Positions 19,791 to 41,783 of a DNA stretch of 57,151 nt are shown here, piece by piece. This stretch comes from an uncultured Syntrophaceae bacterium (GTDB lineage Bacteria; Desulfobacterota; Syntrophia; Syntrophales; UBA2210), in contig CAZNBR010000002.1 in assembly GCA_964571315.1 (NCBI GenBank), positions 1 to 57,151 of the forward strand. Reading direction: 5' to 3'. The first letter of the stretch is position 1. The number at the start of each line of letters is the position of its first letter. The notes beneath the pieces were generated by a model that made no database searches, was not told where the DNA came from, and saw only the letters and a program-made list of their open reading frames with translations. A program made the translations under genes and the position numbers.

Positions 19791-19818
19791 TTATCGGAAG
19801 AAAGGGGAACAAACTTTA
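19791..19818 (-). promoter_or_regulatory. Sigma28 promoter-like element upstream of flagellin
   Basis: Minus strand reads TAAAGTTT-gttcccctttct-TCCGATAA (N12), about 185 nt upstream of the fliC ATG. Confidence 0.55.
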
Positions 19819-19926: not shown

Positions 19927-21258
19927 TTACGAATCCGTCAGGGTTAGGTTTTCATGCTGGCCGATCTGTTCGAGGTGCTTCTTTGCGGCAGGATCATCTG
20001 GTTTGATGGTCAGGACCTTTCGGAAAAACTGCGTCGCACTCTGTATGTCTTTGAACGTGAGACATATTTCCCCGAGCAGGTTATAAGCGGCAGCCGGATT
20101 GCTCCCGGCTTTAATTTCCCGCTCAAGGGCATGTACGGCATCATCATACTGTTGAGTATTCAGAAAAACAACGGCTCGGCAAAGGTGAATATCCTGATAG
20201 TCCGGCTGGATCTCGAGAACGCGATCGAAGGTATCGAGTGCTTCTTTCCAATGCCCCGCGGCGCTAAAGGCCCGGCCGAGGAGAAAAAAGACAGCCGGAT
20301 GACGGACACCCTTCTCAACACCTCGGCTGATCAGTTGGATTGCCTGTCCAACCTTATTTTCGTCAAGGTAGATCCGGCCCAGGTTGTGGCAGGCCCCGAC
20401 ATGATCCGGCATCCTCCCCAGGACCCACTCGTAGTCACGCTGCGCCTCCCCGGGGCGGTCCAGCCGGTCCAGGGCCTGTCCCCGGTTGAAGCGGAGCTCG
20501 ACCAGATCCGGAAATCTGGCAACACCTTCGGCCAGAACATCGAGGGCTTTATGCGGCATTCCCGATTCCAGATACTGATCCGTCAACCCCTTGTAGGCCG
20601 AAGGATTATCAGGTTGCTGCCGGAGTTTCTCTTCTCCCAGATTCAAATAGATTTCGGCCTTTCGTGAGAGGCAATTATTTATTACCTTCCCATAATGATG
20701 GATGGGAATTTGGGTATCCACAAACGATAACCCGAGCTTCCGGAAAGATGCATTCACTGTTTCGTGAACCGTTCCGGTAAAACAGATCTGTTTTTTATTT
20801 CGAAAGAGTCTGATCAGCCGGACGGGAATGAAACCGAGAAAGCCTCGCCCTTCTTCATAATCACCGGGGTTAAGGGTCAAATTAGCGAGAGCCGGGTTGT
20901 TTTCATAATTTCTCAGAATGAAACGGTAGCCGTCCGCTTTGGGATCACGAACAAGCTCTCTGATCTTTTCTATGTCCTGCCTGGCAACGACCTCGTCGGC
21001 ATCCATAATAAGAATCCAGTCGCCGCGGGCATATTCGACGGCCTGGTTGCGGTGTGTGCTGAAGTCATCTTCCCAGGGATGCGTATATACGCCGGCCCCG
21101 AATCCCCTGGCGATGTGAACGGTCCCGTCCGTGGAACCCGTATCGACCACGATCATCTCATCGACCAGCCCCTGCACGCTGGCAAGGCACCGACCCAGGA
21201 CGGCCTCCTCATCTCTGACGATCATGCACAGTGATATCTGCGGTCTTTCAGCGGACAT
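19927..21258 (-). CDS. GT2-family glycosyltransferase fused to C-terminal TPR repeats
   Basis: ISLCMIVRDEEAVLGRCLASVQGLVDEMIVVDTGSTDGTVHIA...WILIMDADE (GT-A fold with DxD), then TPR repeats (GQALDRLDRPGEAQRDYEWVL, GRAFSAAGHWKEALDTF...). ATG 21258 (MSAERPQ) is preferred and overlaps the upstream stop. Confidence 0.85.
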   Translation of the reverse strand: MSAERPQISLCMIVRDEEAVLGRCLASVQGLVDEMIVVDTGSTDGTVHIARGFGAGVYTHPWEDDFSTHRNQAVEYARGDWILIMDADEVVARQDIEKIRELVRDPKADGYRFILRNYENNPALANLTLNPGDYEEGRGFLGFIPVRLIRLFRNKKQICFTGTVHETVNASFRKLGLSFVDTQIPIHHYGKVINNCLSRKAEIYLNLGEEKLRQQPDNPSAYKGLTDQYLESGMPHKALDVLAEGVARFPDLVELRFNRGQALDRLDRPGEAQRDYEWVLGRMPDHVGACHNLGRIYLDENKVGQAIQLISRGVEKGVRHPAVFFLLGRAFSAAGHWKEALDTFDRVLEIQPDYQDIHLCRAVVFLNTQQYDDAVHALEREIKAGSNPAAAYNLLGEICLTFKDIQSATQFFRKVLTIKPDDPAAKKHLEQIGQHENLTLTDS

Positions 21259-22795
21259 CTTCGCACCGACCTCCTGAAGTGTGCCTTGCAGATAATGAGC
21301 CCTCCAGCAACGGTTTAAACCCGTACTCGATGGCATCCATCAGGGTCACCGTATCCCTGCTCTTGAGGGCCTCCAGGCATCCCTGGAGAAGCCCCGGGAT
21401 TGTTTCGATGCCATCCCGGCCCTCCGTCAGGGTGCCCCTCAGGGCCAGCCACTGACCCAGATAGTCCGAGAAACACAAAAACCCCCTCTCACACTCCCCC
21501 TCCAGAAAGGCCCGGATGATCTCATCTCCTTTTTCGAGCAAAATCCACGGGAGGTATCTTTTTTCATCCACATCCACCTTGAATCGATCTCGCCGCGGCA
21601 GGGAATCTTTTAGGTTTTCAGGATAGAGCAGGACTTGTTCCCCCTCTGCGTCGCGGGAAGTCACAAAAAGCTTCACGGCTGCGGCGGCGTACTCCCAGTT
21701 GATGGGTTTGTTTTTCTGAAATGCCTCAAACGCCTCGAATGCCCTCATAACCACCGATGGACCCATCATCTCCTTGCATTCGTGGCCCCTTTCGCAATGC
21801 TCCAGATCGGAGCAGGGGGCGCAGGGGACGTCGGAATACAGGACGAAATGTCCGGGGCCATAAGGGCCCGTCTCCCAGGGATATGCGGTGCCGAAAAAGA
21901 GGGACAGGACCGGAGTACCCACCGCCGCCGCCATATGCATGGGGCCGGTGTCCCCCGTAATGAGAAGTTCACACCTCTCAAGGACGGCCCCTGTCACCTT
22001 AAGCGATGTTTTTCCTATCAGGTTTATGAGATTATTCCCTTCTCCAACGAGTTCTTGCTCTACACGTGTAAACAACTCCCTTTCATCTTCGCTTCCGATG
22101 AGAATTACTTTTTTTTGTTTCTCATTGATGAGCCAGTTGATGACTTCCGTAAAATTATGTTCTCCCCATTGCCGGAAGGATTTGGCCGCCCCTATCTGAA
22201 TCCCGACAAGGGCTCTTTCATTCTCAGTTTCAGTATTACAAATAAGCCTTCCTGCTTCCTTTCGGGCCCCGTGACCGGTATGAAAGTGCATCTGCCTGTG
22301 ATTTCCGGAAGGTACTCCCGCAATTCGGCAGGCCCAGTCAACAAGGTTATATCTGTTTGCTTTTCGATCCCCTTTGATCGCAGCAAAGAGATCTTTCGAT
22401 GGTTGATCCTCAAAATAAAAGCCCTTTTCCGATGAATATGTCCCGCCGACTATCTTCTCGGCTCCGATAAGATAGGCAAAAACAGCTCCCCATTCGTACT
22501 GCCGGTTGATGATAAGGTCGAAGTCTTTTTGCCTCAGCTCGCAAAGGAGGTCGTAAAGTTCATTGAATATCGATGCATATCTATCCGGCTTATTTTTCAA
22601 CACATATCGATATTCCTTTTCCGGGATCGAAATGATGGCATCGACATCAGGGTTCCCCTCGATCAGCGGAGCAAACTCCTCTCCCGTCAGAAAGTAAACC
22701 CTGCTTTCCGGATATGCCTCCCTCAGCCCCCTGAACATGGGGGTCAACTGAAGGATATCACCTAATCTGTGGGTTCGGATGACCAGTATATTCAT
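21248..22795 (-). CDS. GT9 (heptosyltransferase-like) glycosyltransferase with a ~170-aa C-terminal extension
   Basis: MNILVIRTHRLGDILQLTPMFRGLREAYPESRVYFLTGEEF (GT9 N-terminal signature). LITGDTGPMHMAAAVGTPVLSLFG (nucleotide-sugar binding). Cys cluster CAPCSDLEHCERGHEC. The tail has no recognised domain. Confidence 0.85.
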   Translation of the reverse strand: MNILVIRTHRLGDILQLTPMFRGLREAYPESRVYFLTGEEFAPLIEGNPDVDAIISIPEKEYRYVLKNKPDRYASIFNELYDLLCELRQKDFDLIINRQYEWGAVFAYLIGAEKIVGGTYSSEKGFYFEDQPSKDLFAAIKGDRKANRYNLVDWACRIAGVPSGNHRQMHFHTGHGARKEAGRLICNTETENERALVGIQIGAAKSFRQWGEHNFTEVINWLINEKQKKVILIGSEDERELFTRVEQELVGEGNNLINLIGKTSLKVTGAVLERCELLITGDTGPMHMAAAVGTPVLSLFFGTAYPWETGPYGPGHFVLYSDVPCAPCSDLEHCERGHECKEMMGPSVVMRAFEAFEAFQKNKPINWEYAAAAVKLFVTSRDAEGEQVLLYPENLKDSLPRRDRFKVDVDEKRYLPWILLEKGDEIIRAFLEGECERGFLCFSDYLGQWLALRGTLTEGRDGIETIPGLLQGCLEALKSRDTVTLMDAIEYGFKPLLEGSLSARHTSGGRCEDVR

Positions 22796-22808
22796 GCCGT
22801 TTCAAGCC

Positions 22809-23435
22809 TCACTGTATCATTTCCGAAAGCAATTTCCGGATGCCCTGGCTGAAAATCGGGGCTTTCCGCAGACGGCGCTCGAAGATGTGTTCCTCTAACA
22901 TGCCCCGGATCGGTTGATAATAATCCGGATGCAGATCAGTTGCCGGGGAATATACCCGATACCGCAGGGTGCCCGGATGCAGATGATTGAAAAATTCTTT
23001 GATTGGTTCCGGATTTTCTTGGACAAACCATTGAGTTCGTGGATCTTCTAAGACGGGTTTCAGGGCAACTGATCGCAGGGCACGTTGAAACAGCCCTAAA
23101 TCCGCCTCAATAATTATCAGAAGACCTCTGTACTTTTGCTTTTTTAAGGCAAGCGTATGATAACCGAGGCCAAATCCAAGAACGGTCAGAATTTCAGTTC
23201 CCTGGGGGATGAGTCTCGCCCATTGCCTGGCTTCCTTTTCCGGATTATGACGACTGTGAACATATCTCACAAGCCCTTCTCCCAAAATCTTCCTTGCCGT
23301 CACCTGTCCGTTATGAGCGGGGTGGGTCTCCCAGCACTGTTGAACCGTATGTCCTTCCAGTCTACCAGCAAGGACAGGATTTCTTTTTCTGAGAATGCTC
23401 AGATTCTTTTCTAAAAGTTCCATTTTGATATTCAA
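22809..23435 (-). CDS. Stand-alone paralog of the Maf N-terminal domain
   Basis: 208 aa. It aligns by eye with residues ~5-150 of the adjacent 636-aa Maf: LEKNLSILRKRNPVLAGRL vs FKNNLTALSEKYPKLAKKI; VLGFGLGYH vs FMGLGLGYH; LLIIIEADLGLFQRAL vs VIIYERDVELFRLAL. It lacks the DUF115 catalytic part. Confidence 0.6.
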   Translation of the reverse strand: MNIKMELLEKNLSILRKRNPVLAGRLEGHTVQQCWETHPAHNGQVTARKILGEGLVRYVHSRHNPEKEARQWARLIPQGTEILTVLGFGLGYHTLALKKQKYRGLLIIIEADLGLFQRALRSVALKPVLEDPRTQWFVQENPEPIKEFFNHLHPGTLRYRVYSPATDLHPDYYQPIRGMLEEHIFERRLRKAPIFSQGIRKLLSEMIQ

Positions 23436-23473
23436 TGTCTGAGTTGGAGAAGGCTATCGTTCATTTTCTTTTC

Positions 23474-25384
23474 CTACATACTTTGCATCTCTTTTTTTAA
23501 CGTCATTTCGGTATCTTGCAGGACATTTCTCGTAAAGACAAGAAAGCTCGCCACAACGGAAAACCATTCTGTCATCTTTCTAACTCGTGCCATGGATAAC
23601 ATGTCCTTATTCGTGTAAATATCTTTGAGAAAGGAAAGCTCACTTGCCAGCCATACGTCATAGGCCTGAAGCGTCTGCCCTGTAATCTCATACAAAGGCC
23701 TATTGTCGTTGACAGTTGCACTCAATTCCAGCCACTTTCTTTCAACAGACAAAAGCCTACTCATATCAACGCTGGAATCCGTTTTGTCTTTTATATAGGG
23801 TTCGATTATCTCTCTATCCACTCCGTGCGCCTCATTCAGGGCCGTCTCAAAACAATCAATTACTGCTTCTACAATTTTACGTGTATCCTGCGTCTTGTGG
23901 TAAATCCTTTTCATCTCATCCTTTGTATTGCTCCGACACACAAAATGATCATAGACCTCGTTAAGGATTGTTCGAGGGTGGAATGGTTCCTGGCAGTACC
24001 TTTCGATTGCTTCTTTGAAGGGCATGATCTCTGCTCCTTTTATCTTTGCTCCTCCTTCGGTTGCATTGATACACGTACCGGGATAAGCGACTATATCCTC
24101 TTCATATATGAGTTTCATAACCTCCCAGAGTTTTTCCGATTTGACAGGCTTACCATAATTTCCTTCGATTTCGATAACGGGCTTTGATAGAATAGTCTCA
24201 TCCCGTTCTCCGAATATGTTTCCTTTAACATGGGTCTCTCCGTCATCCGCGTAAGCCAAGTCCTGACCGATCAGGATTATCGGGTCACACTCAAAGAGCG
24301 TCAGAATCTTGAATGCTAAATTAGCAACAGAAATCCCGACGTTCAATGTACCTTTATCTATTTCCAGCCATTTAAAATAAGGATAATTTCTATAAGCAAT
24401 GAATTTTCGTCCCTTAAAGGCATCGATCACCTCGGGCATAATGACCGGAAGGGCGACAAAGTAAATGTCTTTGAAGTTATCTACGCTGGTATAGAAAAGA
24501 TCGACACCAGGTGTCCTCTCGAGAGAGGTCACTATGTGCGGCCGGATTCCCTTTTGCATCAACGGGCCAAAACTTGCGTCACAACTTATAATCAGGGCTT
24601 TATCTCTCAGCCCTTTCAAGAAATGCATATTTTTGTTCAATGATGGTCCTGCTGCCACCAAGACCCCGGGGGTTTTCTTAAATCGTCCGTACAATTCGTT
24701 AATTCCTGGATTTGAAAAAACATGCTTGAGATTTCCGAACATATTTTCAAGGCCGAGCAGTGAATCGAAGGAATCATTGCCCACCATGATCATAACCTGA
24801 CGGAGAGCCTGCCTGATTGTTTTCATAACCCCTTGGTAATATGAACAATCAAGGACGATGCTCGAGGGTATTGGAACAATCTTAACGGAACGCAGAGCAT
24901 ATATGTCCCGTATAAAGATATCCGTGCGGAGCTTCACGAAACTATCCTCAGGATCTCCCCCTATAAAAAAATGAATGTTTGGATGTCTTAAAAGTTGTGT
25001 ATAATCGCCGGAAAAGAGTGCAAGTCGGAATAATTCCACGTCTCTTTCATAGATGATGACTTCTTCTGCCCCCCACTCGTGGCTGAGCAGTCTCATGAAT
25101 ACATCCAGGTGGTAGCCAAGGCCAAGTCCCATAAAAAAGACAAGAGGGGCATATTTGATCTTCAGCTCTTCCAAGAATTGTTGAGCCGATTGCACAGGAT
25201 CATTTACATCATAGAATAAAACCCGATCTGCTTCCCTTTCTATCAGGACATTGGGATAGCCTGTTTTTGATCTGATCAGCTTATAACTGCCGCTTCCTCT
25301 TGTTTCACCTATTTTCTTTGCCAGTTTGGGGTACTTCTCAGAGAGTGCTGTCAAATTGTTTTTAAAAAACATCTCACTTTTCAT
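23474..25384 (-). CDS. maf: Motility accessory factor (Maf, DUF115/MptE-like): candidate flagellin nonulosonic-acid glycosyltransferase
   Basis: 636 aa. Central VLVAAGPSLNKNMHFLKGLRDKALIISCDASFGPLMQKGIRPHIVTSLER matches the DUF115 core of Maf proteins. It sits in a Pse biosynthesis cluster next to flagellin. Confidence 0.8.
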   Translation of the reverse strand: MKSEMFFKNNLTALSEKYPKLAKKIGETRGSGSYKLIRSKTGYPNVLIEREADRVLFYDVNDPVQSAQQFLEELKIKYAPLVFFMGLGLGYHLDVFMRLLSHEWGAEEVIIYERDVELFRLALFSGDYTQLLRHPNIHFFIGGDPEDSFVKLRTDIFIRDIYALRSVKIVPIPSSIVLDCSYYQGVMKTIRQALRQVMIMVGNDSFDSLLGLENMFGNLKHVFSNPGINELYGRFKKTPGVLVAAGPSLNKNMHFLKGLRDKALIISCDASFGPLMQKGIRPHIVTSLERTPGVDLFYTSVDNFKDIYFVALPVIMPEVIDAFKGRKFIAYRNYPYFKWLEIDKGTLNVGISVANLAFKILTLFECDPIILIGQDLAYADDGETHVKGNIFGERDETILSKPVIEIEGNYGKPVKSEKLWEVMKLIYEEDIVAYPGTCINATEGGAKIKGAEIMPFKEAIERYCQEPFHPRTILNEVYDHFVCRSNTKDEMKRIYHKTQDTRKIVEAVIDCFETALNEAHGVDREIIEPYIKDKTDSSVDMSRLLSVERKWLELSATVNDNRPLYEITGQTLQAYDVWLASELSFLKDIYTNKDMLSMARVRKMTEWFSVVASFLVFTRNVLQDTEMTLKKEMQSM

Positions 25385-27837
25385 GTATCCGCTCCCTCAA
25401 TCAATGTGGCCCGATTTGTATCATTCATGTTCTTCATGCTCGTATCGATGTCTCCTTCTTTTACTCTTTCAGCACGAATTAGATAGGAGAGGACCTTTTC
25501 ACATATCATCGCTTCATCCTTTCTTCCTGAGCCTGCGAAATGCCGCAATAATATAAGAACAAGACGACCGACGTCAGAAAAATCCTGGATTTCAAAATCT
25601 ATCTCTATTTCTTCCTGTTCGATGATCTGTCTGGAGACTTCAAAAAACGCTTTCCACTGATCAGCCCTTGCAAATGCATAAAGACCAGCCATGTGATATT
25701 TAGTATCCAGTGGATTTCTTTCGAGGGCCTGGGCAATATGGTCTATCCCCTTGGCAATCTGACCCGTCTCCAACAGAGAAAACCCACTGTAGTAGAAAAT
25801 CTCCGATACAGCTTCCGAGTCCACAATGTCAAAGCTATGGTCGATCAATTTTGCCACAGCCCCATGTACCTCACCATACCGTTCCTCTTTTAAGCAAATT
25901 TCTGCCAGGGCAAGGTGAAGCGCGAGCGAGTCGGGAGAATCTTTAAGCGCTTTTCTAATGATCCTCTCGGAACAGTTGTAAAGATTCTGTTTTGTGTAAA
26001 GCATGGCAACCTTTGCTACCAGCCCAGGGTTTGCCTGTTCGAGCCTCTCAAACCACGAACAGGCCTCTTCAAGATCCCCCAATCTCAGGAAAAACAATCC
26101 TCCCTCAAGGATATCTGCCGGGCTCTCAATGACATGAAAAGATTTTTTGACTGCTTTTATCTTTCTTGCATTCCTGAATTCCTTGTTTACATTGCCATGC
26201 GTAATGTTAAACAATTGGACGGTTGCTATCTCCATATGTATATGACGGAGTGACGGTTCCACTGACTCAAATGCGGCTCCCGAAAAAAACACCTCACGCA
26301 GACGCGGAAAGAGCCGCACTCTATATTCAATTGGTTCCTGTTTGAGTAGTCTATTCAGATAAGAAGCCGACATGTTCTGGGTGGTCTCCTCAAGCGCAAT
26401 CTTTAATCTGTAAGCGACATTACAGCTTCGTGGAAGGAGCTTTTTAAATAAGGCCACGTTTAATCGATCTCGGACATGAATGAATTCATCGGCGTCAAGG
26501 GTAAAAACGTAATCACTCTGTGCTTCTTCCAGAGCACTGTTCCTTGCAGCCGAAAAGTCATCGTTCCATTGCGATTCGATTACTCTCCCTCCATACTCTC
26601 TCACGATTTCCATGGTTCTGTCAGATGAGCCTGTATCCACAACGACTATCTCATCAACAATATTTTTCACTGATGCCAGTGTCTTTTCGATAGTATTTTC
26701 TTCATCTTTGGCGATCATGCACAGACCCACCGTCAATGGTCGCCATTCGTCGCCTTTAATGATAGAAAGGATAAGCTGATGAAAGGTATCTGGTTGCATC
26801 TCAATCGATTTTTCAATAAACGAGGCCGCTTTTTCTCTCTCCCCTTTAATGAGATACAATTTGCCAATGGTTGCGAAGATATCCGGATCCATGGAAAGTT
26901 CAATCGCCTTTTCATAACAGGAGATCGCTTCATCCAGTAAGAAGAGGTTCGCGTTAATTATACCACCCGCAGTGTGAATCCTCTTTGTCTCTTCACCGTT
27001 TCGGTTTCTGACCCACGCTTCGAGAAGGTCTTTTGATTCTCTGTAATCTCCTTTTCGATTGAGGAATTCGAGCATAGGAAGGTACATGGCGTCGATTCCG
27101 AAACCCCGTTCAGCGTTTTCCATAAAACCGTCTAGGTAGCCCTTATGAAGTATTCTAAAACCTATGTAAGCAGAGCTGAGCTCATCCAGATCCTCTCCGG
27201 GAGCAGGTCCGTAGTAGATCTCATTTGATAAACAACGCCTGTCATGTTCCTTCTGATCTTCCTGCTCTTGTGATTCTTTTTCTGTAGAAATAGGTTCGAT
27301 GAGCAGGCTGGCGGCTGTTTTTGATCCATTGAACGGAATCTTGCGTTGATGACCGAGCAGGACATTCAGGCACTCATTAGCAAAATCTGTTCTGACTAGT
27401 CGAACCTCATCTCTTGTGACACAAGCGGAATCAACAACCCAATCATACTGCCCCAGATTGCCTATCAACTGATAGTTTTTAAGCAGAGAGGTTGTGTCAT
27501 CCTTTATACGAATCCAATATCCAGCACAGGTTTTGTCGCTCAATAAGGAATAAAGCTTTTCCGGAGACGAAAAGTTGAATCGTTCATTTGTCTTCAGAAA
27601 CAGCACCCACTCAGATTGCACTGTGGATTGAAGAGAATCCGGATCCACCGGATGTGCGCCAAGCTCAGCTGCTCTCGATCGAACATCTCTTGAACCGGAA
27701 TCAACAAAAAAAACCTTCGCTGCCAATTTTGCAGCAAGTCTTACACAGTCGACGAACTCCGGCACACACTCATTTCCGAAAATACAAATCGATAGGACCT
27801 CTTTCAATTTTGAATTCACAGGCATTCTACTCCTCAT
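25381..27837 (-). CDS. 818-aa multidomain protein: degenerate GT2-like, TPR, intact GT2, TPR
   Basis: The central domain LCMIAKDEENTIEKTLASVKNIVDEIVVVDTGSSDRTMEIV...YVFTLDADEF is a complete GT-A/DxD. The N-terminal domain LSICIFGNE...VFFVDSGSRDV...WVLFLKTNERF keeps the fold signature but lacks DxD. TPR-like repeats flank the intact domain. Confidence 0.85.
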   Translation of the reverse strand: MRSRMPVNSKLKEVLSICIFGNECVPEFVDCVRLAAKLAAKVFFVDSGSRDVRSRAAELGAHPVDPDSLQSTVQSEWVLFLKTNERFNFSSPEKLYSLLSDKTCAGYWIRIKDDTTSLLKNYQLIGNLGQYDWVVDSACVTRDEVRLVRTDFANECLNVLLGHQRKIPFNGSKTAASLLIEPISTEKESQEQEDQKEHDRRCLSNEIYYGPAPGEDLDELSSAYIGFRILHKGYLDGFMENAERGFGIDAMYLPMLEFLNRKGDYRESKDLLEAWVRNRNGEETKRIHTAGGIINANLFLLDEAISCYEKAIELSMDPDIFATIGKLYLIKGEREKAASFIEKSIEMQPDTFHQLILSIIKGDEWRPLTVGLCMIAKDEENTIEKTLASVKNIVDEIVVVDTGSSDRTMEIVREYGGRVIESQWNDDFSAARNSALEEAQSDYVFTLDADEFIHVRDRLNVALFKKLLPRSCNVAYRLKIALEETTQNMSASYLNRLLKQEPIEYRVRLFPRLREVFFSGAAFESVEPSLRHIHMEIATVQLFNITHGNVNKEFRNARKIKAVKKSFHVIESPADILEGGLFFLRLGDLEEACSWFERLEQANPGLVAKVAMLYTKQNLYNCSERIIRKALKDSPDSLALHLALAEICLKEERYGEVHGAVAKLIDHSFDIVDSEAVSEIFYYSGFSLLETGQIAKGIDHIAQALERNPLDTKYHMAGLYAFARADQWKAFFEVSRQIIEQEEIEIDFEIQDFSDVGRLVLILLRHFAGSGRKDEAMICEKVLSYLIRAERVKEGDIDTSMKNMNDTNRATLIEGADT

Positions 27838-27902
27838 ATCTCCCCTTATTCAGGTTGCCATTCAGCCAGCTTTGCATAATGGATCATTTAACATATCCAG
27901 AT

Positions 27903-30093: not shown

Positions 30094-30124
30094 GCTAAAT
30101 CTCCTTTTATTTATGTGTTCTAAA

Positions 30125-33095: not shown

Positions 33096-33101
33096 TGTTT
33101 C

Positions 33102-35264: not shown

Positions 35265-35273
35265 TCTAATATC

Positions 35274-36056
35274 TCAGTCAATCTTCTTTTTAGGCAGCAT
35301 TTTATCTTCTGCCAGAGATTTCAGTAATCCTTCATTCCGTTTAATATGGATGTTGATTTTAGCTAAATCCGGCCTTTGATAAACAAGCTCCAGAACATCA
35401 TTCATGCGGAAATTCCTGTTTACAGGATAAAGTTTCTCAATCACCTGCCTTACGAATTCAAAATCTTCCGGTTCATCCACCGTCCATCTCAACTGAGAGA
35501 AATTTTCATGATATGTCCAATTACCTGTTTTGAAAATCTCAGGATGATTTCTGATATATGGCGTAACATGTTCAAGTTCCGAAGGAAGTAAGGCGTGCTT
35601 ATAGGCATAATCAAGCGTCTCGAAATTGAAAATCTCCGCGTCCAGGCCATCCGGAAGTGTCGGATAGAGGCAGTTGCTCGCATAGTCCAGATTTTCAGAA
35701 AAATAATATTCAATAAGCATCGCTAAAATATCCGGGTCAATCAGAGGGCAATCTGCGGTAACACGCATGATATGCCCGGCACCAAACATTGTCGCCGCTC
35801 CGTGAAAACGTTCTAAGACATTTTTTTCTGATCCCCTGAATACCTGTACGCCTTTATTACTGCCAAATATGGCTATAGAATCATCTTCAGAATTCAAAGT
35901 AGTGGCAAGTACAATATCCTTGATGCCCTTACAGCATCGCACACGTTCAATTAAATAACTCAGCAAAGGCCGCCCGAGGACTTCCTTCATAACCTTGCCC
36001 GGAAGTCTGGCAGATGTCATTCTTGCCTGGATGATTGCCGTGACTTCAGGTTCCAT
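35274..36056 (-). CDS. SpsF-type cytidylyltransferase (candidate CMP-nonulosonate synthetase)
   Basis: 260 aa. AIIQARMTSARLPGKVMKEVLGRPLLSYLIERV is the SpsF/CTP_transf_3 N-terminal signature. It is the only cytidylyltransferase in the cluster. Confidence 0.8.
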   Translation of the reverse strand: MEPEVTAIIQARMTSARLPGKVMKEVLGRPLLSYLIERVRCCKGIKDIVLATTLNSEDDSIAIFGSNKGVQVFRGSEKNVLERFHGAATMFGAGHIMRVTADCPLIDPDILAMLIEYYFSENLDYASNCLYPTLPDGLDAEIFNFETLDYAYKHALLPSELEHVTPYIRNHPEIFKTGNWTYHENFSQLRWTVDEPEDFEFVRQVIEKLYPVNRNFRMNDVLELVYQRPDLAKINIHIKRNEGLLKSLAEDKMLPKKKID

Positions 36057-37381
36057 TATGCAAGCCTCTTAAACCCAACACCGGAAGGTTTTCCAATGAG
36101 TTTTTTATCGATATCGTTCTGCTCGATTGATCGCGCTATTTCCGCAAAAGCCTTGTCAACCGACTTAAAATAGTCCTGAACATTCTCGTCAGTATGTGCA
36201 TACATCGCATAAAACAAATTAGATGCAAGAAAGCCCTGTTCCAGCATGAGTTGAATAAAATATGCCTTGATCGACTGAGCCTTATCATGGGCAAAAGCAA
36301 AATGACTCATGGGTTTCATTCCACCAACTTCTATAGACAGGCCGTGGTTACCCGCCATTTTTTTCCAGCCGGATTGTACCTGTTCGCCAAGCCAGACAAG
36401 ATGTTTTCCGGCATCAACTCTTTCGTGCTTTTTAATCATCGCAATTGCCGCGGTTGGCCCTATACGCTCAGTCCAGTTGGTACTGCTGATAAATGTCTGT
36501 TGGGCTGCCTGCATAACATCAGTCTTGCCAATAACGGCTGCTATCGGATAGCCGTTCCCCAAGGCCTTGGAAAAGACAGCTATATCAGGCTCTATCGTAA
36601 AAAACTTCATGTGAGCCCCGCCGGTGTTGTATCTGAATCCAGATGAGATCTCGTCAATGACAAGCACCGCCCCGGTTTCATCGGCCAAATTACGAACCCC
36701 TTCACCAAATCCCGGCTCAGGTTCATAATTGCGCAGCGGCTCCATTACGATAGCCGCCAAATCTTTACCATGCCCGGCTACTATTTCCTCAAGCTCCATG
36801 AGATGATTGTAGCGAAAGGGAAGCGCTGTGCCCTCTAAAGCATGAGGGACACCTGCCGGGTCGAGGCCTGAGAGGAGGTGCTCTCCCAAAGCATTTTCCG
36901 TACCGAGATTGGCGGATAAATACCAGTCGTGCCAACCGTGATAGCCGCAGACCGCTACTTTATCTTTTCCTGTATAAACACGGGCGATACGGACTGCAAT
37001 GGCCATGGCCTCACCTCCCGTTCGGGCGAATCTGACCATTTCTGCCCATGGATGAAGGTTACATAGAAGTTCAGCCAGATCGACCTCTTCAGGACAATTC
37101 AGAGAGCAACTTGTTCCATTTGCTATGGCACTTCGCACTGCGTCATCCACATCAGGGTCGGCATAACCCAGGATGTTGGCCCCGATACCGCCTATACTCA
37201 TGTCAATGTATTTGTTTCCGTCAAGATCCCATACGTTAACACCTTTGGCCTTGCTGAAATAACCGGGCCATACTCCCAATGAAAACATGTCAGGCCTTTT
37301 GGATAATAGCTGGGTCATGCCTGGAATGAGCTTCTTCGCACGTTCCTGCATTTTCAGGCTATTTTGGATGTTCATTTTCAT
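36056..37381 (-). CDS. Class-III PLP aminotransferase (glutamate-1-semialdehyde aminomutase-like)
   Basis: 441 aa. GANILGYADPDV, VLVIDEISSGFRY and AVFSKALGNGYPIAAV (PLP-lysine region). Confidence 0.85.
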   Translation of the reverse strand: MKMNIQNSLKMQERAKKLIPGMTQLLSKRPDMFSLGVWPGYFSKAKGVNVWDLDGNKYIDMSIGGIGANILGYADPDVDDAVRSAIANGTSCSLNCPEEVDLAELLCNLHPWAEMVRFARTGGEAMAIAVRIARVYTGKDKVAVCGYHGWHDWYLSANLGTENALGEHLLSGLDPAGVPHALEGTALPFRYNHLMELEEIVAGHGKDLAAIVMEPLRNYEPEPGFGEGVRNLADETGAVLVIDEISSGFRYNTGGAHMKFFTIEPDIAVFSKALGNGYPIAAVIGKTDVMQAAQQTFISSTNWTERIGPTAAIAMIKKHERVDAGKHLVWLGEQVQSGWKKMAGNHGLSIEVGGMKPMSHFAFAHDKAQSIKAYFIQLMLEQGFLASNLFYAMYAHTDENVQDYFKSVDKAFAEIARSIEQNDIDKKLIGKPSGVGFKRLA

Positions 37382-37428
37382 GAGATTTCCTTTATAAAAG
37401 AATAGATTTCAGTACATGTGTCAACAGG

Positions 37429-38106
37429 TCATTTCCCATACGGCCCGGTAGGATACGCATATTCTTCACTTTTCCGAAGCACGTCTATAGCAATCCTTTC
37501 GTCCGGATTATTGTTGTATTTCCCATCACCTGGTGCAAAAGATTCATGATGCGCTAATGTATAGACAGGATTCCACGTAAACATATTTTTATAGTTCATT
37601 TTATAACTATATATTCCCTTACAGTGGGAATATTCATTTTTGTATGCAAAGTTCGGGTTGAAATCTAATATGAATAAATTGCCATTGTTTTTTAACACCC
37701 TGTCAACTTCGAAAGCTATTTTGAATAATTTGTCTCTTTCACATAGGTATAGACAAAAACCCATTATTATGGTGTCAAAGAAATCGTTTTTATATGACAA
37801 ATTATCTGCCGTTGATATTGTAAGCTCCGTCTCGGGATATGATTTGTTGCCATAACTGATTGCTTTTGAAGAAGGATCTATTCCTGAACACCTGCACTTA
37901 TATTTTTTCCTCAAACCCTCTAATCTCCAGCCGCTGCTGCATCCTATTTCTAAGACATTTTTGGGGATTATGTCCAAGTACTCGAAACATGTTATAATTT
38001 TATCGTTTGCAATGCGTTCTTCCAAACTGACTTCGGAATCTATGAGATTTCTTTCAAACCATTTGTCACCTTCTCCATTTAGGAATATATTTCCCTGATT
38101 TGCCAT
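37429..38106 (-). CDS. Class I SAM-dependent methyltransferase (Pse-cluster-associated methylase type)
   Basis: VLEIGCSSGWRLEGL (motif I) and FDTIIMGFCLYL. Start ATG 38106 is preceded by AAGGAGA at 5-nt spacing, so it is preferred over the ORF-track start at 38139. Very AT-rich. Confidence 0.8.
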   Translation of the reverse strand: MANQGNIFLNGEGDKWFERNLIDSEVSLEERIANDKIITCFEYLDIIPKNVLEIGCSSGWRLEGLRKKYKCRCSGIDPSSKAISYGNKSYPETELTISTADNLSYKNDFFDTIIMGFCLYLCERDKLFKIAFEVDRVLKNNGNLFILDFNPNFAYKNEYSHCKGIYSYKMNYKNMFTWNPVYTLAHHESFAPGDGKYNNNPDERIAIDVLRKSEEYAYPTGPYGK

Positions 38107-38117
38107 GGTGTCTCCTT

Positions 38118-39014
38118 TTATGTAATATCTTTGGGCCAAAAACAGGGATCCAGTAACGTCTCGTCTATATCCTTAAATTCCTTTTGAATCTTTTGACCCA
38201 ACGCTTTGGGCCAGGGCATATCCCAGTATTTCATGTTTTCTTTTATTTGCATCGGTGATTCTGCACCAAAAACAAGCATTGATTGAGGAAAAGTATTTTT
38301 AATGTATCCTATGCATAAAGCATGAACACTTAATCCGACGTCGCGCGCGAGAGATTGCAAGGGCTTGAGAACCCGAGCCGCAAAGTGCATATTGCCTGGA
38401 AGGGAGTAAGGATCCATGAGGAGCAGTCCCTGCAAAAAAACACTCCGAACATAAATTGTCTTCTCTCTGATTTGCGCACAATCGAAAACCCCTGCCTGTT
38501 CAAATCTTCTGTCTAAAATGTTCGTCGGTAGCTGTACGATGGTAATTCCATCTGTCTCAAGCGCCTGTATGGCTTTGGAAGGCGAATATACTGAGACACC
38601 CAGATGTTTTACCTGTCCTGATCGCACAAATTTTTCGAGGGTTCCCCCTAATCCTTTATCCCATAAGTCCAAAGATTCTTCTCTATGGAGTAAAAGACCA
38701 TATACCTGTGAGATTTTTAGACGGGAAAGAGTTTCCTCCAAAGCCTGTTCCATATCTGCATGGTTTAGGTGATCAAGGTTGGGATGAAATTTGCTGATGA
38801 TTTTGACATCGTTGCCTATTCCCACTGAATTCAGTGCTTTTCCAAGAACCTGTTCACTTTCACCATACGCTGCTGCTGTATCAAATTCACATATGCCGGA
38901 TTCCCAGGCTGTATGTATGATGGAGATAGCTGTTTTGAGATCGGGCTTTCCGCTCCGATTCGCTATTCCATAATTCATTCCCAACTGTGCCGTGCCGAGT
39001 ACAAGTCGTCTCAT
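38118..39014 (-). CDS. Aldo/keto reductase
   Basis: 298 aa. LVLGTAQLGMNYG..., FDTAAAYGESEQVLG and IVQLPTNILDRR are typical AKR (Tas/YajO-like) motifs. Confidence 0.85.
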   Translation of the reverse strand: MRRLVLGTAQLGMNYGIANRSGKPDLKTAISIIHTAWESGICEFDTAAAYGESEQVLGKALNSVGIGNDVKIISKFHPNLDHLNHADMEQALEETLSRLKISQVYGLLLHREESLDLWDKGLGGTLEKFVRSGQVKHLGVSVYSPSKAIQALETDGITIVQLPTNILDRRFEQAGVFDCAQIREKTIYVRSVFLQGLLLMDPYSLPGNMHFAARVLKPLQSLARDVGLSVHALCIGYIKNTFPQSMLVFGAESPMQIKENMKYWDMPWPKALGQKIQKEFKDIDETLLDPCFWPKDIT

Positions 39015-40291
39015 ACGTAAAATTGGTTTAAATCTCGCAAGGGTTTTCCCCGCCCCAAGGGGCGTTCAATACTCTTAATGATACCCCGCTGCGGCGGAGA
39101 GTTGGTTTGTAGTTGTTCACCTATTGTTTCAATTACTGCTGTAATGACTCTTTCCACATCATCATCTGTCATTCCCGGAAACAAAGGGAGGGAGATGATC
39201 TGTTCATATGCTCTTTCCGCCACAGGGCACAGTCCCGGGCCGGTAAGAAATGTTTTCCTGTAAAATGGATGAAGATGCACTGGAATATAATGGACGTTTA
39301 TACCGATGTTCTTTTCACGGACGATTTTAAAAAATGTAGACCGATCAATCTCGAGTTCTTTAAAATTTATTTTGACAACATAAAGATGATATGCATGAAG
39401 GATATTTGGACCGACTGAAAGAGGTGTAATTTCCGGAATGTCAACAAATACTTCGTCATAGCGTCCGGCAATCTCCTTCCTCCGAATGATCCAACCGGGA
39501 AGCTTTTTAAGTTGGCTCATCCCCAGGGCGCACTGGAAATCGGTTAACCGGTAATTATAGCCAAGATTGATCATTTCATAATGCCAGGTGCCTTCTTTTT
39601 CACGTTGGTGGTGCTCGGTGGTGATGCCGTGGTTACGAAACGTACGCATCTTCTTTGCCATGGAAGATTCATTCGTTGTTATCATTCCACCTTCACCGGT
39701 CGTTATATGTTTTACGGGATGAAAACTAAACGCGGTCATATCTGCCAGACTGCCGGTTTTCGCCCCATTATATTCTGCTCCGAGGGCATGACAGGAATCC
39801 GCAATCAGAGTCAGGTCATACCTTGAGGCAATAGATTGAATGATGTTGTAATTGCAAGGTTGCCCGGCAAAGTCTACTGCAATGATTGCTTTTGTATGTG
39901 GTGTAATTTTCGCCTCCACACATTTCGGGTCAATGAGCAATGTATCCTGCTCAACATCTGCAAAAACAGGCGTTCCTCCTTGAAACACAACAGCATTGGC
40001 TGTAGCCACAAAAGTCATCGGCGGAACAATAACCTCATCTCCAGGACCAATACCGGCAGCATACATGGCAGCATGCAACGCTGCGGTTCCGTTGCTTACG
40101 GCTACCGCCTCTTGTGCCCCCACAAAACCAGCAAAAGCCTGTTCAAATTCAGACACCTTTGGCCCAGTGGTAAACCAGTCAGAGCGAAGAACCTCCGCCA
40201 CAGCCCGGATGTCGTCCTCATCAATCCACTGATGCCCGTAAGGAATGAAATGTTGCTCAGGTTCCGCTATTTGATTTTTAGGTATTTTCAT
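39011..40291 (-). CDS. pseC: UDP-4-amino-4,6-dideoxy-N-acetyl-beta-L-altrosamine transaminase (DegT/DnrJ/EryC1 family)
   Basis: FIPYGHQWIDEDDIRAVAEVLRSDWFTTGPKVSEFEQAFAGFVGA and SFHPVKHITTGEGG (PLP-Lys). About 40 extra C-terminal residues. Confidence 0.88.
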   Translation of the reverse strand: MKIPKNQIAEPEQHFIPYGHQWIDEDDIRAVAEVLRSDWFTTGPKVSEFEQAFAGFVGAQEAVAVSNGTAALHAAMYAAGIGPGDEVIVPPMTFVATANAVVFQGGTPVFADVEQDTLLIDPKCVEAKITPHTKAIIAVDFAGQPCNYNIIQSIASRYDLTLIADSCHALGAEYNGAKTGSLADMTAFSFHPVKHITTGEGGMITTNESSMAKKMRTFRNHGITTEHHQREKEGTWHYEMINLGYNYRLTDFQCALGMSQLKKLPGWIIRRKEIAGRYDEVFVDIPEITPLSVGPNILHAYHLYVVKINFKELEIDRSTFFKIVREKNIGINVHYIPVHLHPFYRKTFLTGPGLCPVAERAYEQIISLPLFPGMTDDDVERVITAVIETIGEQLQTNSPPQRGIIKSIERPLGRGKPLRDLNQFYV

Positions 40292-40302
40292 TCCTTTGTC
40301 CT

Positions 40303-41670
40303 TTATCGAATTGCAGTGGATATACTTTCACTGTCAGGAATACATTCTTCTTCGTTAATCATGCCCAAAATGATTTTTTCATTCAGACGATGTATCGTAG
40401 AAGCAAGCTGGGAGATTGCACTATTGTCATCAATAGACGGCTCATAAATGAGTTTTCTTAACTCGTCGACACCAAGCCATTGATCATTTTTATTGCTGGA
40501 ATATACAAAGCCTTCCGGTAAGTTTTGCCCCGATTTGTAATTCTGCCTTTCCCACCAGGGATAGTTTGGCAAGATGACATATAAACCATCATGCGCTACC
40601 GTGTTTCTCCCTTCCTCTTCGGTAACAAGAATTTCGTGGAGTTTTTCCCCTGGCCTTATTCCAATAACTTCGATCTCGCACTCCGGCGCTACGACTTTAG
40701 CAAGGTCTGAAATATTCATGCTGGGGATTCTGGGAATAAATATTTCCCCTCCCTGCATGTGACTGAGTGTATGAACCACCAGTTCAACGGCCTGGTCGAG
40801 AGTGATCCAGAATCTCGTCATTTCTTTGTCCGTTACCGTTATTTTCCCCGTCTTTTTCTGTTCCTGGAAGAGGGGGACAACACTGCCACGGCTTCCGATT
40901 ACATTCCCATATCGGACACAGCTGAACCTTGTACCACGAGGGCCTGTGTAAGAATTCCCCTGAATGAAGATCTTTTCGGCGCAGAGCTTGGTCGCCCCAT
41001 AGAGATTAACGGGGTTTGCCGCTTTATCGGTACTCAGGGCAACGACCTTTTTGACACCCGTATCAATCGCGGCATCAATAACGTTTTTCGCTCCGAGGAT
41101 GTTTGTTTTTACGGCTTCAAGCGGGTTGTATTCACATGCGGGAACCTGCTTGAGCGCCGCGGCATGGACTACGATATCGATTCCTTCCATCGCTCTTTTT
41201 AGACGTTCCCCATCACGTACATCACCTATAAAGTACCTTATTTTATCTTCGCCAAATTCCTGACGCATTTCATGCTGTTTTAATTCGTCCCGGCTGTAAA
41301 TCCGAATGACCTCGGGATTGTATTTCTCCATCATGACCTTACAAAAATGTCTTCCAAAAGAACCGGTACCTCCCGTCAATAAAATGGACTGTTTTGCCCA
41401 ATTGATTTTTCCTGTATCTTCATTTCCGTTTCTGAGAAGTATTTTTGCCTGTGAAATGGTTTTCTTTTTTATGTGAAGCAACTCTCTGATTTGCATGAAT
41501 TGTTCAACGTCTCTTTGAGAGTATCTCCGCTGTTTTCCCTGGGTCTTTTTGGGTTTTATAAATCCACCAAACTCCGCCTCCCAATAGCGGACAGTGGAAG
41601 CGGGAACCTCTACTTTTTCACTGACTTCCTGTATTTTGTATGCTGCCTTCGTATCCATATTGTTAACCAT
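40303..41670 (-). CDS. pseB: MerR-type HTH domain fused to UDP-GlcNAc 4,6-dehydratase (inverting), PseB
   Basis: aa ~10-75 YKIQEVSEKVEVPASTVRYWEAEFGGFIKPKKTQGKQRRYSQRDVEQFMQIRELL is a MerR/HTH_17-type helix-turn-helix. From aa ~95, ILLTGGTGSFGRHFCKVMMEKYNPEVIRIYSRDELKQ...YGATKLCAEK is the PseB/FlaA1 SDR. The start may be ATG 41658. Confidence 0.88.
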   Translation of the reverse strand: MVNNMDTKAAYKIQEVSEKVEVPASTVRYWEAEFGGFIKPKKTQGKQRRYSQRDVEQFMQIRELLHIKKKTISQAKILLRNGNEDTGKINWAKQSILLTGGTGSFGRHFCKVMMEKYNPEVIRIYSRDELKQHEMRQEFGEDKIRYFIGDVRDGERLKRAMEGIDIVVHAAALKQVPACEYNPLEAVKTNILGAKNVIDAAIDTGVKKVVALSTDKAANPVNLYGATKLCAEKIFIQGNSYTGPRGTRFSCVRYGNVIGSRGSVVPLFQEQKKTGKITVTDKEMTRFWITLDQAVELVVHTLSHMQGGEIFIPRIPSMNISDLAKVVAPECEIEVIGIRPGEKLHEILVTEEEGRNTVAHDGLYVILPNYPWWERQNYKSGQNLPEGFVYSSNKNDQWLGVDELRKLIYEPSIDDNSAISQLASTIHRLNEKIILGMINEEECIPDSESISTAIR

Positions 41671-41700
41671 CCTTATGTAACGTATTAACTGATATTCTTC

Positions 41701-41727
41701 TTTTCGGCTTTGAACAGAGAAACTTTA
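41701..41727 (-). promoter_or_regulatory. Sigma28 promoter-like element upstream of pseB
   Basis: Minus strand reads TAAAGTTT-ctctgttcaaa-GCCGAAAA (N11, a single mismatch in the -10 box), about 30 nt upstream of the ORF start. Confidence 0.55.
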
Positions 41728-41767
41728 ATATAAGTTTCAGATTAACTTTAACGTATGGCAATGAAGG

Positions 41768-41783
41768 AGCAATAAATATGCCA
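41768..41783 (-). promoter_or_regulatory. Sigma54 promoter-like element upstream of pseB
   Basis: Minus strand reads TGGCATATTTATTGCT (TGGCAT-N5-TTGCT), about 100 nt upstream of the pseB start. Confidence 0.55.

Follow-up and report, generated by a model that had tools for sequence, protein, structure and literature searches.

A probable flagellin glycosylation locus in an uncultured Syntrophaceae bacterium: a conserved transferase module and a variable sugar cassette of the pseudaminic acid type

The DNA considered here, a stretch of 57,151 nucleotides referred to below as the window (assembly GCA_964571315.1, contig CAZNBR010000002.1, positions 1 to 57,151), comes from an uncultured Syntrophaceae bacterium and represents a flagellar supercluster, including fliI, fliH, fliG, fliF, flgB, flgC, a sigma54 activator, PilZ-domain and GAF-HD genes, flaG, fliS and fliD, in which a long run of minus-strand genes leads up to the flagellin gene fliC. 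This run, together with three glycosyltransferase (GT) genes upstream of it, forms a locus built in two layers, a conserved transferase module and a variable sugar cassette. According to the reading favored here, to which a probability of about 0.7 is assigned, the cassette would supply a cytidine monophosphate (CMP)-activated, N-acyl-modified and possibly methylated pseudaminic acid (Pse) that the motility-associated factor Maf would transfer to flagellin before export, and GmaR-like and GT9 enzymes would add sugars to FliC and perhaps to the cap protein FliD. The system is of a known kind, and what is unusual is its mix of enzymes and its conserved control region. Two features stand out: the pairing of a stand-alone Maf N-terminal domain (MafN) with a GT9 enzyme that carries a four-cysteine (Cys4) motif, and the fusion of a MerR-type domain to the dehydratase PseB, which is accompanied by a conserved upstream element.

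Between positions 41670 and 19927 the minus strand carries an unbroken run of open reading frames (ORFs) whose junctions are overlaps or gaps of at most 65 nt when the longest ORFs are taken, and of at most 77 nt once gene starts are refined from ribosome-binding sites and from a separate gene call on a 19.8-kb contig of ENA assembly ERZ27248937, which matches the window with full identity over 19927–33095. An earlier note on this DNA had described a tightly packed block of 22 genes abutting the flagellin gene. The packing was confirmed from the ORF map and fliC (18158–19606) does come next, 320 nt downstream, but the block contains 18 ORFs; the remaining gaps are too small for an additional gene, and the plus-strand ORFs within it are short and overlap minus-strand genes. 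The figure of 22 is reached only by splitting three fusion proteins into their domains (MerR and PseB; PseG, GNAT acetyltransferase and formyltransferase; and the degenerate GT2, tetratricopeptide repeat (TPR), GT2 and TPR parts of an 818-aa protein). The upstream border given to the block, 41783, coincides with the first base of a sigma54-type −24/−12 element and is functionally arbitrary, as three further minus-strand transferase genes (41873–46180) are part of the same conserved locus. A scan for terminator-like sequences gave 21 matches in comparison with 18.6 ± 4.9 in shuffled DNA, which conveys no information on internal signals.

The sugar cassette consists of 13 genes (27903–41670), numbered here from the upstream end and located, like all genes of the locus and fliC and fliD, on the minus strand. 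Its core is of the pseudaminic acid type, since PseB, PseC, PseG and PseI pass the equivalog cut-offs of their profile models and the models of the legionaminic (Leg) and neuraminic (Neu) acid pathways fail (LegB, 63.7 bits vs. a cut-off of 475; LegC, 251 vs. 420; NeuB, 308.4 vs. 399.65). Gene 1 (40303–41670) encodes a MerR-type helix-turn-helix (HTH) domain (residues 11–80; PF13411 MerR_1, E-value 2e-16) fused to an inverting UDP-GlcNAc 4,6-dehydratase PseB (residues 92–407; TIGR03589, 502.6 bits, cut-off 407.75). This is followed by the PseC aminotransferase (gene 2, 39011–40291; TIGR03588, 471.4 bits, cut-off 423.5) and, farther downstream, by the pseudaminic acid synthase PseI (gene 8, 32034–33095; TIGR03586, 471.7 bits, cut-off 340.25). 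Gene 7 (33102–35261) is a triple fusion of PseG (residues 8–292; TIGR03590, 246.2 bits, cut-off 153.55; PDB 3hbm, E-value 3e-11), a GNAT domain (residues 356–488; PF13302) and a formyltransferase domain (residues 540–715; PF00551), the last of which matches the sugar N-formyltransferases ArnA, VioF and PseJ (6ci2) in the PDB and is 69% identical to the product of a stand-alone gene in the related locus L025. The pseudaminic acid-type island that had been proposed beside fliC is thereby supported at the level of hidden Markov models, including the check as to whether its core enzymes would be placed in the legionaminic or neuraminic pathways. The GNAT domain described earlier as PseH-like is PseH-like only (TIGR03585, 32.7 bits vs. 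a cut-off of 93.1), and the SpsF-type cytidylyltransferase (gene 6, 35274–36056; PF02348 CTP_transf_3, 103 bits) is indeed of that type and scores 28.6 bits against the PseF model TIGR03584, with a cut-off of 205.7. Gene 6 is the sole cytidylyltransferase gene of the cassette and its product is presumed, by analogy with PseF, to be the CMP-nonulosonate synthetase. The fusion of MerR-HTH and PseB is the rule in metagenome-assembled genomes (MAGs) of Thermodesulfobacteriota; it is present in each of the best 120 homologs of gene 1 (120/120), which are named in the databases as dehydratases only, and a literature search on this fusion found nothing relevant.

The tailoring enzymes listed in the earlier note (an aldo/keto reductase (AKR), two methyltransferases, a class-III aminotransferase, ATP-grasp, SDR, IMPase-like and PIG-L proteins and the formyltransferase domain) were found as described. 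The AKR is encoded by gene 3 (38118–39014; PF00248, 121.7 bits), an S-adenosylmethionine-dependent methyltransferase by gene 4 (37429–38106; PF13649, PF08241), which likely starts at the ATG at 38106 preceded by the Shine-Dalgarno sequence AAGGAG, and the class-III (GSA-like) aminotransferase by gene 5 (36056–37381; PF00202, 137 bits). Genes 9–13 (27903–32028) were assigned by means of Pfam and NCBIfam to an ATP-grasp ligase, an SDR epimerase/reductase, a TylF-type O-methyltransferase, an IMPase/CysQ-like phosphatase and a PIG-L deacetylase, and the same five genes occur in the same order in L025 with 71–82% identity. The class-III aminotransferase and SpsF-type genes are adjacent in the window (35274–37381) and in L023 (13540–15638), and in L024 (13914–15959) the two domains are fused in one 681-aa protein; this adjacency and fusion point to one common intermediate as the substrate of both enzymes. 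The pair usually comes with an oxidoreductase (AKR or GFO/IDH), and nothing relevant on a cassette of SpsF-type, class-III aminotransferase and AKR genes was found in the literature.

The transferase module is represented by genes 14–18 (19927–27825) and the three upstream genes. Among them, gene 15 (23474–25384) encodes a Maf protein with both the catalytic MptE-like/Maf_flag10 domain (PF01973, 150 bits) and the N-terminal domain (PF20157 Maf_flag10_N, 52 bits), which aligns end to end with the PseD model (E-value 1e-64, under its cut-off) and weakly matches the Maf structure 5mu5 (E-value 6.6e-4). It is encoded beside flagellin and nonulosonate genes, as is expected for this family, and a Maf gene lies upstream of fliC in 12 related loci; the gene 15 protein is presumed to be the nonulosonic acid transferase acting on flagellin. 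Gene 16 (22809–23423) encodes MafN, a protein of 204 aa that matches PF20157 only and is homologous to the N-terminal domain of the gene 15 Maf (hhalign probability 99.8%, E-value 2e-29). No MptE-like domain was detected in MafN by the domain search, which places it outside the catalytic Maf proteins and argues for an accessory protein rather than the candidate transferase that a "Maf-N paralog" had been taken for.

Genes 14 and 18 combine a GT-A type GT2 domain having a DxD motif with TPR arrays, the architecture of the Listeria flagellin O-GlcNAc transferase GmaR. Gene 18 (19927–21258, 443 aa with the start at 21258 taken from the ENA gene call) encodes a GT2 domain (PF00535, 84 bits; DAD at residue 112) followed by a C-terminal TPR array (240–460). 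Gene 14 (25381–27825, 814/818 aa) shows internal similarity to gene 18, has a homolog in 10 related loci and encodes, in this order, a degenerate GT2-like domain devoid of DxD, a TPR array, an active GT2 domain (PF00535, 77.8 bits; DAD at residue 448) and a second TPR array. Since GmaR (PDB 22ao) is the best non-TPR match of both GT2 domains in the PDB (E-values 7.9e-20 for gene 14 and 1.7e-28 for gene 18), with SunS next, both proteins are considered GmaR-like and not FlmG-like. An identity with FlmG, which has N-terminal TPRs and a C-terminal GT-B domain, was considered and rejected. The two TPR-GT2 candidates reported before are therefore both present, as GmaR/SunS-like GT-A enzymes and not as relatives of FlmG.

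The product of gene 17, GT9a (21248–22795; PF01075, 98 bits), is a long-form GT9 enzyme of 515 aa. GT9 enzymes are classically lipopolysaccharide (LPS) heptosyltransferases; GT9a has the GT9 fold and Pfam domain and scores under the equivalog cut-offs of all the heptosyltransferase models, WaaC, WaaF and WaaQ (HepI, HepII and HepIII; 87.4 vs. 185.3, 93.8 vs. 134.6 and 99.4 vs. 170.2 bits, respectively). Just past the nucleotide-binding GPYGPGH sequence, four cysteines (C325, C328, C334 and C340) are invariant in an alignment of 15 family members, and the motif C-x2-C-x5-C-x5-C was found in 18 of the 18 GT9a orthologs recovered. The AlphaFold (AF2) model of GT9a (mean predicted local distance difference test score, pLDDT, 82.7) shows a GT-B fold, a small beta element and a four-helix bundle (residues 409–507). 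Foldseek ranked the GT9 structure 3tov first, followed by WaaF and WaaC (E-values of 1e-19 to 1e-13; 1e-19 to 1e-16 for 3tov, 1psw and 6dfe), and neither the Cys4 motif nor the 170-aa C-terminal helical domain aligned to heptosyltransferase structures. The homologs of GT9a are long-form GT9 proteins of about 500–530 aa from Thermodesulfobacteriota, mostly Syntrophales MAGs. A relationship of the C-terminal helical domain with the Maf C-terminal domain, FliS or the C-terminus of GT9b was tried and rejected (hhalign probabilities of 7.7, 0.1 and 0.1%, respectively).

Upstream of the sugar cassette, GT9b (41873–43525; PF01075, 110 bits) is a 550-aa long-form paralog of GT9a (32% identity across 353 aa) with the related cysteine motif CxxC-x5-CC-x3-C at residue 323. 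It is preceded by a CgeB-like GT (Glyco_trans_1_2 plus DUF3880; 43515–44570; PF13524, 121 bits; likely start MRILVVG at 44570) and by the GT9-like GT9c (44909–46180; 423 aa; PF01075, E-value 1.9e-10). The locus thus contains seven catalytic GT candidates besides MafN. Of the five candidate transferases that had been counted within the block, four are catalytic once MafN is left out, and the three upstream genes bring the total to seven. The non-coding gap of 338 nt between GT9c and the CgeB-like gene (44571–44908) probably marks a deletion; L025 carries here one more gene, for a 413-aa protein with 29% identity to the TPR portion of the gene 18 product. If read from its longest ORF (start at 44717), the CgeB-like gene would extend into this gap and have an implausible Arg-rich N-terminus. 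Farther upstream, a 150-aa protein that has no Pfam match (46471–46923) is 65% identical in L025.

Evidence for the layered organization comes from related loci. A scan of GTDB species genomes provided 21 loci among the matches listed, which were annotated by BLASTP against the window proteins, and the surroundings of MerR-PseB homologs were fetched on the same contigs (L023–L025). The order TPR-GT2, Maf, MafN, GT9a, (GT2-TPR), fliC, fliD, fliS, an uncharacterized gene and flaG occurs in about a dozen Syntrophales MAG loci at 40–65% identity, and MafN lies immediately upstream of GT9a in 18 of the 21 loci, MAGs labeled as Nitrospirota included. One Nitrospirota-like MafN-GT9 locus, L017, has PilZ, unknown proteins and a GT1 alongside, with no flagellin gene within 10 kb. 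GT9c orthologs (59–74% identity) head the same locus in L020/L023, L024 and L025, and CgeB-like orthologs (61–77%) sit between GT9c and GT9b in L011, L020, L024 and L025, loci in which this trio abuts the module or the cassette. The transferase set is an order-wide syntenic module of Syntrophales MAGs rather than a peculiarity of this genome. In L011 and L020 the GT9c-CgeB-GT9b genes are followed directly by the TPR-GT2 gene, which indicates that the 13 sugar-synthesis genes are a variable insert. The cassette begins with MerR-PseB in every locus fetched and occupies the interval between GT9b and TPR-GT2 in the window, L024 and L025; in L023 it lies ahead of GT9c and after flgK-flgL-csrA-fliW. 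Its content varies: a GFO/IDH oxidoreductase may replace the AKR, the CTP_transf_3 and class-III aminotransferase domains are fused in L024, L025 has a separate formyltransferase and a second DegT protein, and L023 has a radical SAM enzyme.

Base composition also sets part of the locus apart. In genes 1–16 (22809–41670), which include Maf, MafN and the 818-aa GT in addition to the sugar genes, the GC content at third codon positions (GC3) is 0.35–0.52, compared with 0.58–0.70 in both flanks. The closest relative, Syntrophaceae UBA6078 (L003/L025), shares the layout (FliD 79% and FliC 77% identical) and its cassette has a GC3 of 0.58–0.69, equal to that of its own flanks. Rfam and tRNA scans of the window found nothing, hence no known riboswitch or leader and no tRNA-linked site at which the low-GC cassette could have integrated, and the flanks of the low-GC3 block are free of tRNA, integrase and Rfam elements. 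The simplest reading of this low GC3, with no tRNA or integrase nearby, is that the cassette together with Maf, MafN and the 818-aa GT was replaced homologously from a relative of lower GC content; the composition thus suggests a cassette swap in the window.

The region upstream of MerR-PseB was aligned for four genomes (the window, L023, L024 and L025) and contains a composite element that is near-invariant within otherwise diverged DNA: a sigma54-type motif TGGCAY-N5-TTGCW, three repeats of which the third is TAAAGTTT, and CCGA after 12–13 nt, the latter being kept in all aligned relatives. In the window the sigma54-type promoter element (TGGCAT-N5-TTGCT, 41768–41783) stands at the head of the 18-gene block, followed by three tandem 11-bp direct repeats, TAAAGTTAATC / TGAAACTTATA / TTAAAGTTTCT (41718–41750), with the core AAAGTTA, and by a sigma28-like promoter (TAAAGTTT-N12-CCGA, 41704–41727) whose −35 box is the third repeat. 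The pattern GGCAY-N5-TTGCW has two matches in the 57 kb (0.55 expected), both on the minus strand and intergenic ahead of gene blocks; the second and weaker candidate (GGCATACAAGTTGCT, 46246–46260) lies upstream of GT9c. The sigma28-like pattern occurs in four copies in the window, ahead of fliC, fliD, the MerR-PseB gene and a GAF-HD gene, and repeat 3 with CCGA has the same architecture as the fliC and fliD promoters. When the first 22 loci were scanned with a strict sigma54 pattern, matches were few and mostly had the wrong orientation; the conserved site emerged only once the DNA ahead of MerR-PseB had been fetched. Within the window the 28-nt repeat pattern has a single match (0 expected); L023–L025 contain it once each, and seven further copies were among the matches listed when metagenome contigs were scanned for the exact pattern. 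All seven have the sigma54 motif ahead of them, and the gene that follows is MerR-PseB in every metagenome contig that extends downstream (6/6); with L023–L025 included, ten contigs besides that of the window carry the element, and MerR-PseB follows in all that have downstream sequence (9/9). Between the promoter element and the MerR-PseB start, about 60–150 nt downstream of the repeats, three metagenome contigs (L027, L029 and L032) have a conserved stretch of about 90 nt (GTTAGTGATTAGAG...CTCTGTGTTCTCTGAGGGCTCTAGCGATC...) that is absent from the window and could be a mobile repeat or a structured leader.

There are precedents for such an arrangement. CarH, a protein with a DNA-binding domain of the MerR type, binds to 11-bp direct repeats in tandem, the −35 box being part of them (PMC9304148), and the Helicobacter pylori Maf gene jhp0106 is under RpoN control (PMC5368276); a sigma54-activator response regulator is encoded in the window at 6250–7662. 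On the basis of the conserved element and these precedents, tandem sigma54/sigma28 promoters and autoregulation by MerR-PseB through the repeats are proposed, the repeats being a candidate operator of its MerR domain. The layout resembles that of CarH operators in that three tandem 11-bp repeats, one of which comprises the −35 box, adjoin a gene whose product joins a MerR-type HTH to a larger oligomerizing module. It differs in the AAAGTTA core, unrelated to the CarH consensus TnnACA, in the partner of the HTH, which is an SDR dehydratase and not a B12-binding module, and in the sigma54/sigma28 promoters.

The presumed acceptor, FliC (482 aa; PF00669, PF00700), is encoded at 18158–19606 and has a sigma28-type promoter (TAAAGTTT-N13-CCGATAA, 19791–19818) 108 nt past the stop codon of the last gene of the block. 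Serine and threonine account for 22% of its residues and for 27% of the central region. The giant cap protein FliD (14318–17743; FliD_N, FliD_C), whose sigma28-type promoter is at 17793–17820, was confirmed to have 1141 aa; it contains 24% Ser plus Thr and no Cys, as compared with an average of 10% Ser plus Thr in the other proteins of the locus. Its orthologs have 1140–1178 aa in L003, L005, L006, L012 and L016 and are shorter in other loci. This composition makes FliC and FliD plausible targets for O-glycosylation and, in conjunction with the seven GT candidates, makes a multi-sugar or multi-target glycan plausible. In the fliC-fliD intergenic region, an 81-aa ORF rich in Arg, Pro and Ser (17818–18063, minus strand) overlaps the fliD promoter and is probably not a gene.

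These elements can be assembled into a pathway. The cassette would produce the CMP-activated Pse derivative from UDP-GlcNAc by the successive action of MerR-fused PseB and PseC, N-acylation by the GNAT and/or the formyltransferase domain fused to PseG, hydrolysis by PseG, condensation with phosphoenolpyruvate by PseI and activation by the SpsF-type cytidylyltransferase. Tailoring would comprise de-N-acetylation by PIG-L, re-acylation by the ATP-grasp ligase, methylation and a step involving the oxidoreductase and the class-III aminotransferase. Maf would attach the nonulosonic acid to Ser/Thr residues of the flagellin central domain in the cytoplasm prior to export; the two GmaR-like proteins would hold flagellar substrates by their TPR arrays and add a second kind of sugar; and the long Cys4 GT9 enzymes, with non-catalytic MafN as a likely adaptor, would add or extend sugars on FliC and possibly on giant FliD. 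The genes would be expressed, presumably as a single transcript, from the composite promoter 35–115 nt upstream of gene 1, with its sigma54 site, three repeats and sigma28-like promoter. With such a promoter the enzymes would be made within the flagellar hierarchy, before or together with the sigma28-driven fliC and fliD, and the MerR domain of MerR-PseB, by probable binding to the repeats, would exert feedback on its own operon.

The strongest competitor of this pathway, still an unlikely one, is that only Maf acts on flagellin and that the GT9, GT2/TPR and CgeB-like enzymes modify the LPS core or other surface or secreted proteins, their location reflecting co-regulation or history. GT9a does have an LPS-heptosyltransferase fold, with 3tov, WaaF and WaaC as its best matches, and no GT9 is known to glycosylate a flagellin; the role of the Maf N-domain is described as unclear and MafN-GT9 in L017 is found away from any flagellin gene. 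However, the tight synteny with fliC is kept at just 40–65% protein identity, GT9a falls under the WaaC/F/Q cut-offs and possesses the extra Cys4 motif and helical domain, MafN, its constant neighbor, shares homology with a domain for which flagellin glycosyltransferases are the only known source, and the GT2 domains are closest to GmaR, itself a flagellin O-GlcNAc transferase.

Two further explanations are far less probable. Pse is found in O-antigens and capsules and GT9, GT2 and CgeB-like enzymes often occur in loci for envelope glycans, so that a surface polysaccharide locus (O-antigen, capsule or S-layer glycan) using Pse could merely lie beside flagellar genes, and the foreign composition of the cassette would agree with this. 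Yet the locus contains no gene for Wzx/Wzy, an ABC exporter, an initiating phosphoglycosyltransferase or a ligase; it has Maf and MafN, sigma54 and sigma28-like promoters of the flagellar regulon, and is kept inside flagellar clusters (in L023 the cassette follows flgK-flgL-csrA-fliW), all of which make this explanation very improbable. It is equally hard to credit that the product is a 5,7-diamino sugar other than Pse (of the legionaminic, 8-epi-legionaminic or acinetaminic type), with the SpsF-type and class-III aminotransferase genes as marks of another pathway. The failure of the PseF and PseH models and the conserved, uncharacterized trio of oxidoreductase, class-III aminotransferase and CTP_transf_3 point in that direction, and SpsF-type enzymes serve the legionaminic pathway in Bacillus subtilis, but inverting PseB, PseC, PseG and PseI exceed their cut-offs and LegB, LegC and NeuB do not.

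Several observations also weigh against the pathway as drawn above. As the PseH and PseF equivalog models fail, acylation and CMP activation rest on family-level analogy, and no genes for ADP-heptose synthesis are present in the locus. The role of the Maf N-domain is described as unclear even for characterized Maf proteins (PMC11339370), which makes the adaptor role of MafN a guess. With regard to expression, a sigma70-like scan yielded 29 matches vs. 27.2 ± 4.6 in shuffled DNA and conveys no information on internal promoters, which the block may contain; visual inspection of the 300 nt ahead of GT9c in L025, a stretch to which the pattern scan was not applied, showed no equivalent of the 46246–46260 site; and the repeats, which do not match the CarH consensus, may merely belong to the sigma28 promoter or bind another regulator. 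In addition, all of the relatives compared are MAGs.

A bolder and more tentative proposal joins the two outstanding features, namely that MafN and the Cys4 GT9 constitute an unrecognized two-part protein glycosyltransferase of the filament or cap and that MerR-PseB is both an enzyme and a transcription factor; taken together these are possible, and on balance doubtful. In the former case the Maf N-domain would provide recognition of the substrate or partner and the heptosyltransferase-like GT-B protein catalysis, in an arrangement conserved from Syntrophales to Nitrospirota. In the latter, MerR-PseB bound to the repeats between the sigma54 and sigma28 promoters would couple flux through the first committed step of Pse synthesis to expression of the whole operon.

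Comparison with characterized systems shows which parts of the locus are familiar. The Pse pathway of Campylobacter jejuni and H. pylori (PseB, C, H, G, I and F, with the Maf proteins PseD/PseE and Jhp0106) shares the PseB, PseC, PseG and PseI equivalogs and a full-length Maf beside the flagellin gene, and flagellar sigma control fits the RpoN dependence of the H. pylori Maf gene. Here, in contrast, the place of PseF is taken by an SpsF/CTP_transf_3 enzyme, the only counterpart of PseH is the GNAT domain that gene 7 joins to PseG and the formyltransferase, PseB carries the MerR domain, and the locus adds a stand-alone Maf N-domain and six GT candidates outside the Maf family. In Listeria monocytogenes, GmaR is both a flagellin O-GlcNAc transferase and an anti-repressor, and it has the order GT2 then TPR seen in gene 18; the window differs by having two such proteins, the 818-aa one with an extra degenerate GT2-like domain and two TPR arrays, and by the coexistence of a nonulosonic acid system. 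Caulobacter crescentus FlmG, a pseudaminyl transferase, follows the same logic of a TPR array holding flagellins for the attached GT domain, which is GT-B in FlmG and GT-A (GT2) here; Caulobacter moreover lacks Maf, whereas this locus has it.

With respect to GT9a, the nearest functional precedent for a heptosyltransferase-like enzyme acting on protein is found in the bacterial autotransporter heptosyltransferases (BAHTs) TibC and AAH; TibC, a protein-directed heptosyltransferase, has a four-cysteine iron finger (C339, C342, C358 and C370; PMC4358343). GT9a and these enzymes are alike heptosyltransferase-related GT-B enzymes with a Cys4 metal-finger or finger-like insertion late in the C-lobe, formed in GT9a by C325/C328/C334/C340; the likeness is a functional analogy and not a family assignment, as GT9a has no N-terminal beta-barrel, a different cysteine spacing, an added C-terminal helical bundle and a weaker fold match to TibC than to WaaC/WaaF. 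Membership of GT9a in the BAHT family was tried and rejected: phmmer gave no match of this kind in the PDB, the Foldseek match to TibC (E-value 3e-8, TMt about 0.5–0.55) ranks behind 3tov, WaaF and WaaC, and the model begins at a Rossmann strand; the Cys4 analogy alone is kept. For the flag-2 loci of Enterobacterales, in silico work has already listed GT9 genes within flagellin glycosylation regions (PMC6993521). Apart from that listing, the literature search on GT9 acting on flagellin found nothing relevant, and the same was true for flagellin glycosylation in Syntrophales. The flagellin islands of Geobacillus and Clostridium and variable region VR1 of flag-2 likewise combine variable sugar cassettes and assorted GTs beside flagellin, with a GT9 in the flag-2 VR1; here, on the other hand, the GT set is fixed and syntenic across an order and only the sugar cassette varies. 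As far as the literature search shows, neither a MafN-GT9 pairing nor a MerR-PseB head gene is described in the surveys of those islands.

Some neighboring genes deserve mention. The fourth sigma28-like promoter (10605–10628, plus strand) lies upstream of a phosphodiesterase-like gene encoding GAF and HD (HD_5) domains (10921–11976), and a PilZ-domain gene (12297–12902) adjoins flaG, a similar PilZ gene being present near MafN-GT9 in L017; this hints that cyclic-di-GMP signaling is tied to the late flagellar regulon. A protein of 149 aa that has no Pfam match (13357–13806) is encoded between fliS and flaG in most related loci, and both it and the 150-aa protein upstream of GT9c are likely uncharacterized flagellar accessory proteins.

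Glycosylation of flagellin with Pse is needed for filament assembly in several bacteria. As to how acceptors are selected and what the Maf N-domain contributes, the locus offers a natural dissection, the N-domain standing alone beside a GT9 with a metal-finger-like motif, and throughout an entire order it retains, side by side, candidate protein GTs of three classes that differ in mechanism (Maf, GmaR-like GT2/TPR and GT9). MerR-PseB and the conserved sigma54/repeat/sigma28 element may serve as a model for the coupling of sugar supply to the transcriptional hierarchy of the flagellum. The host bacteria live as syntrophic anaerobes and have a giant Ser/Thr-rich cap, and in another syntroph, Pelotomaculum, FliD reportedly acts as a signal to methanogen partners; the expanded FliD cap may therefore matter for partner contact, and glycans on the flagellar surface may bear on partner recognition.

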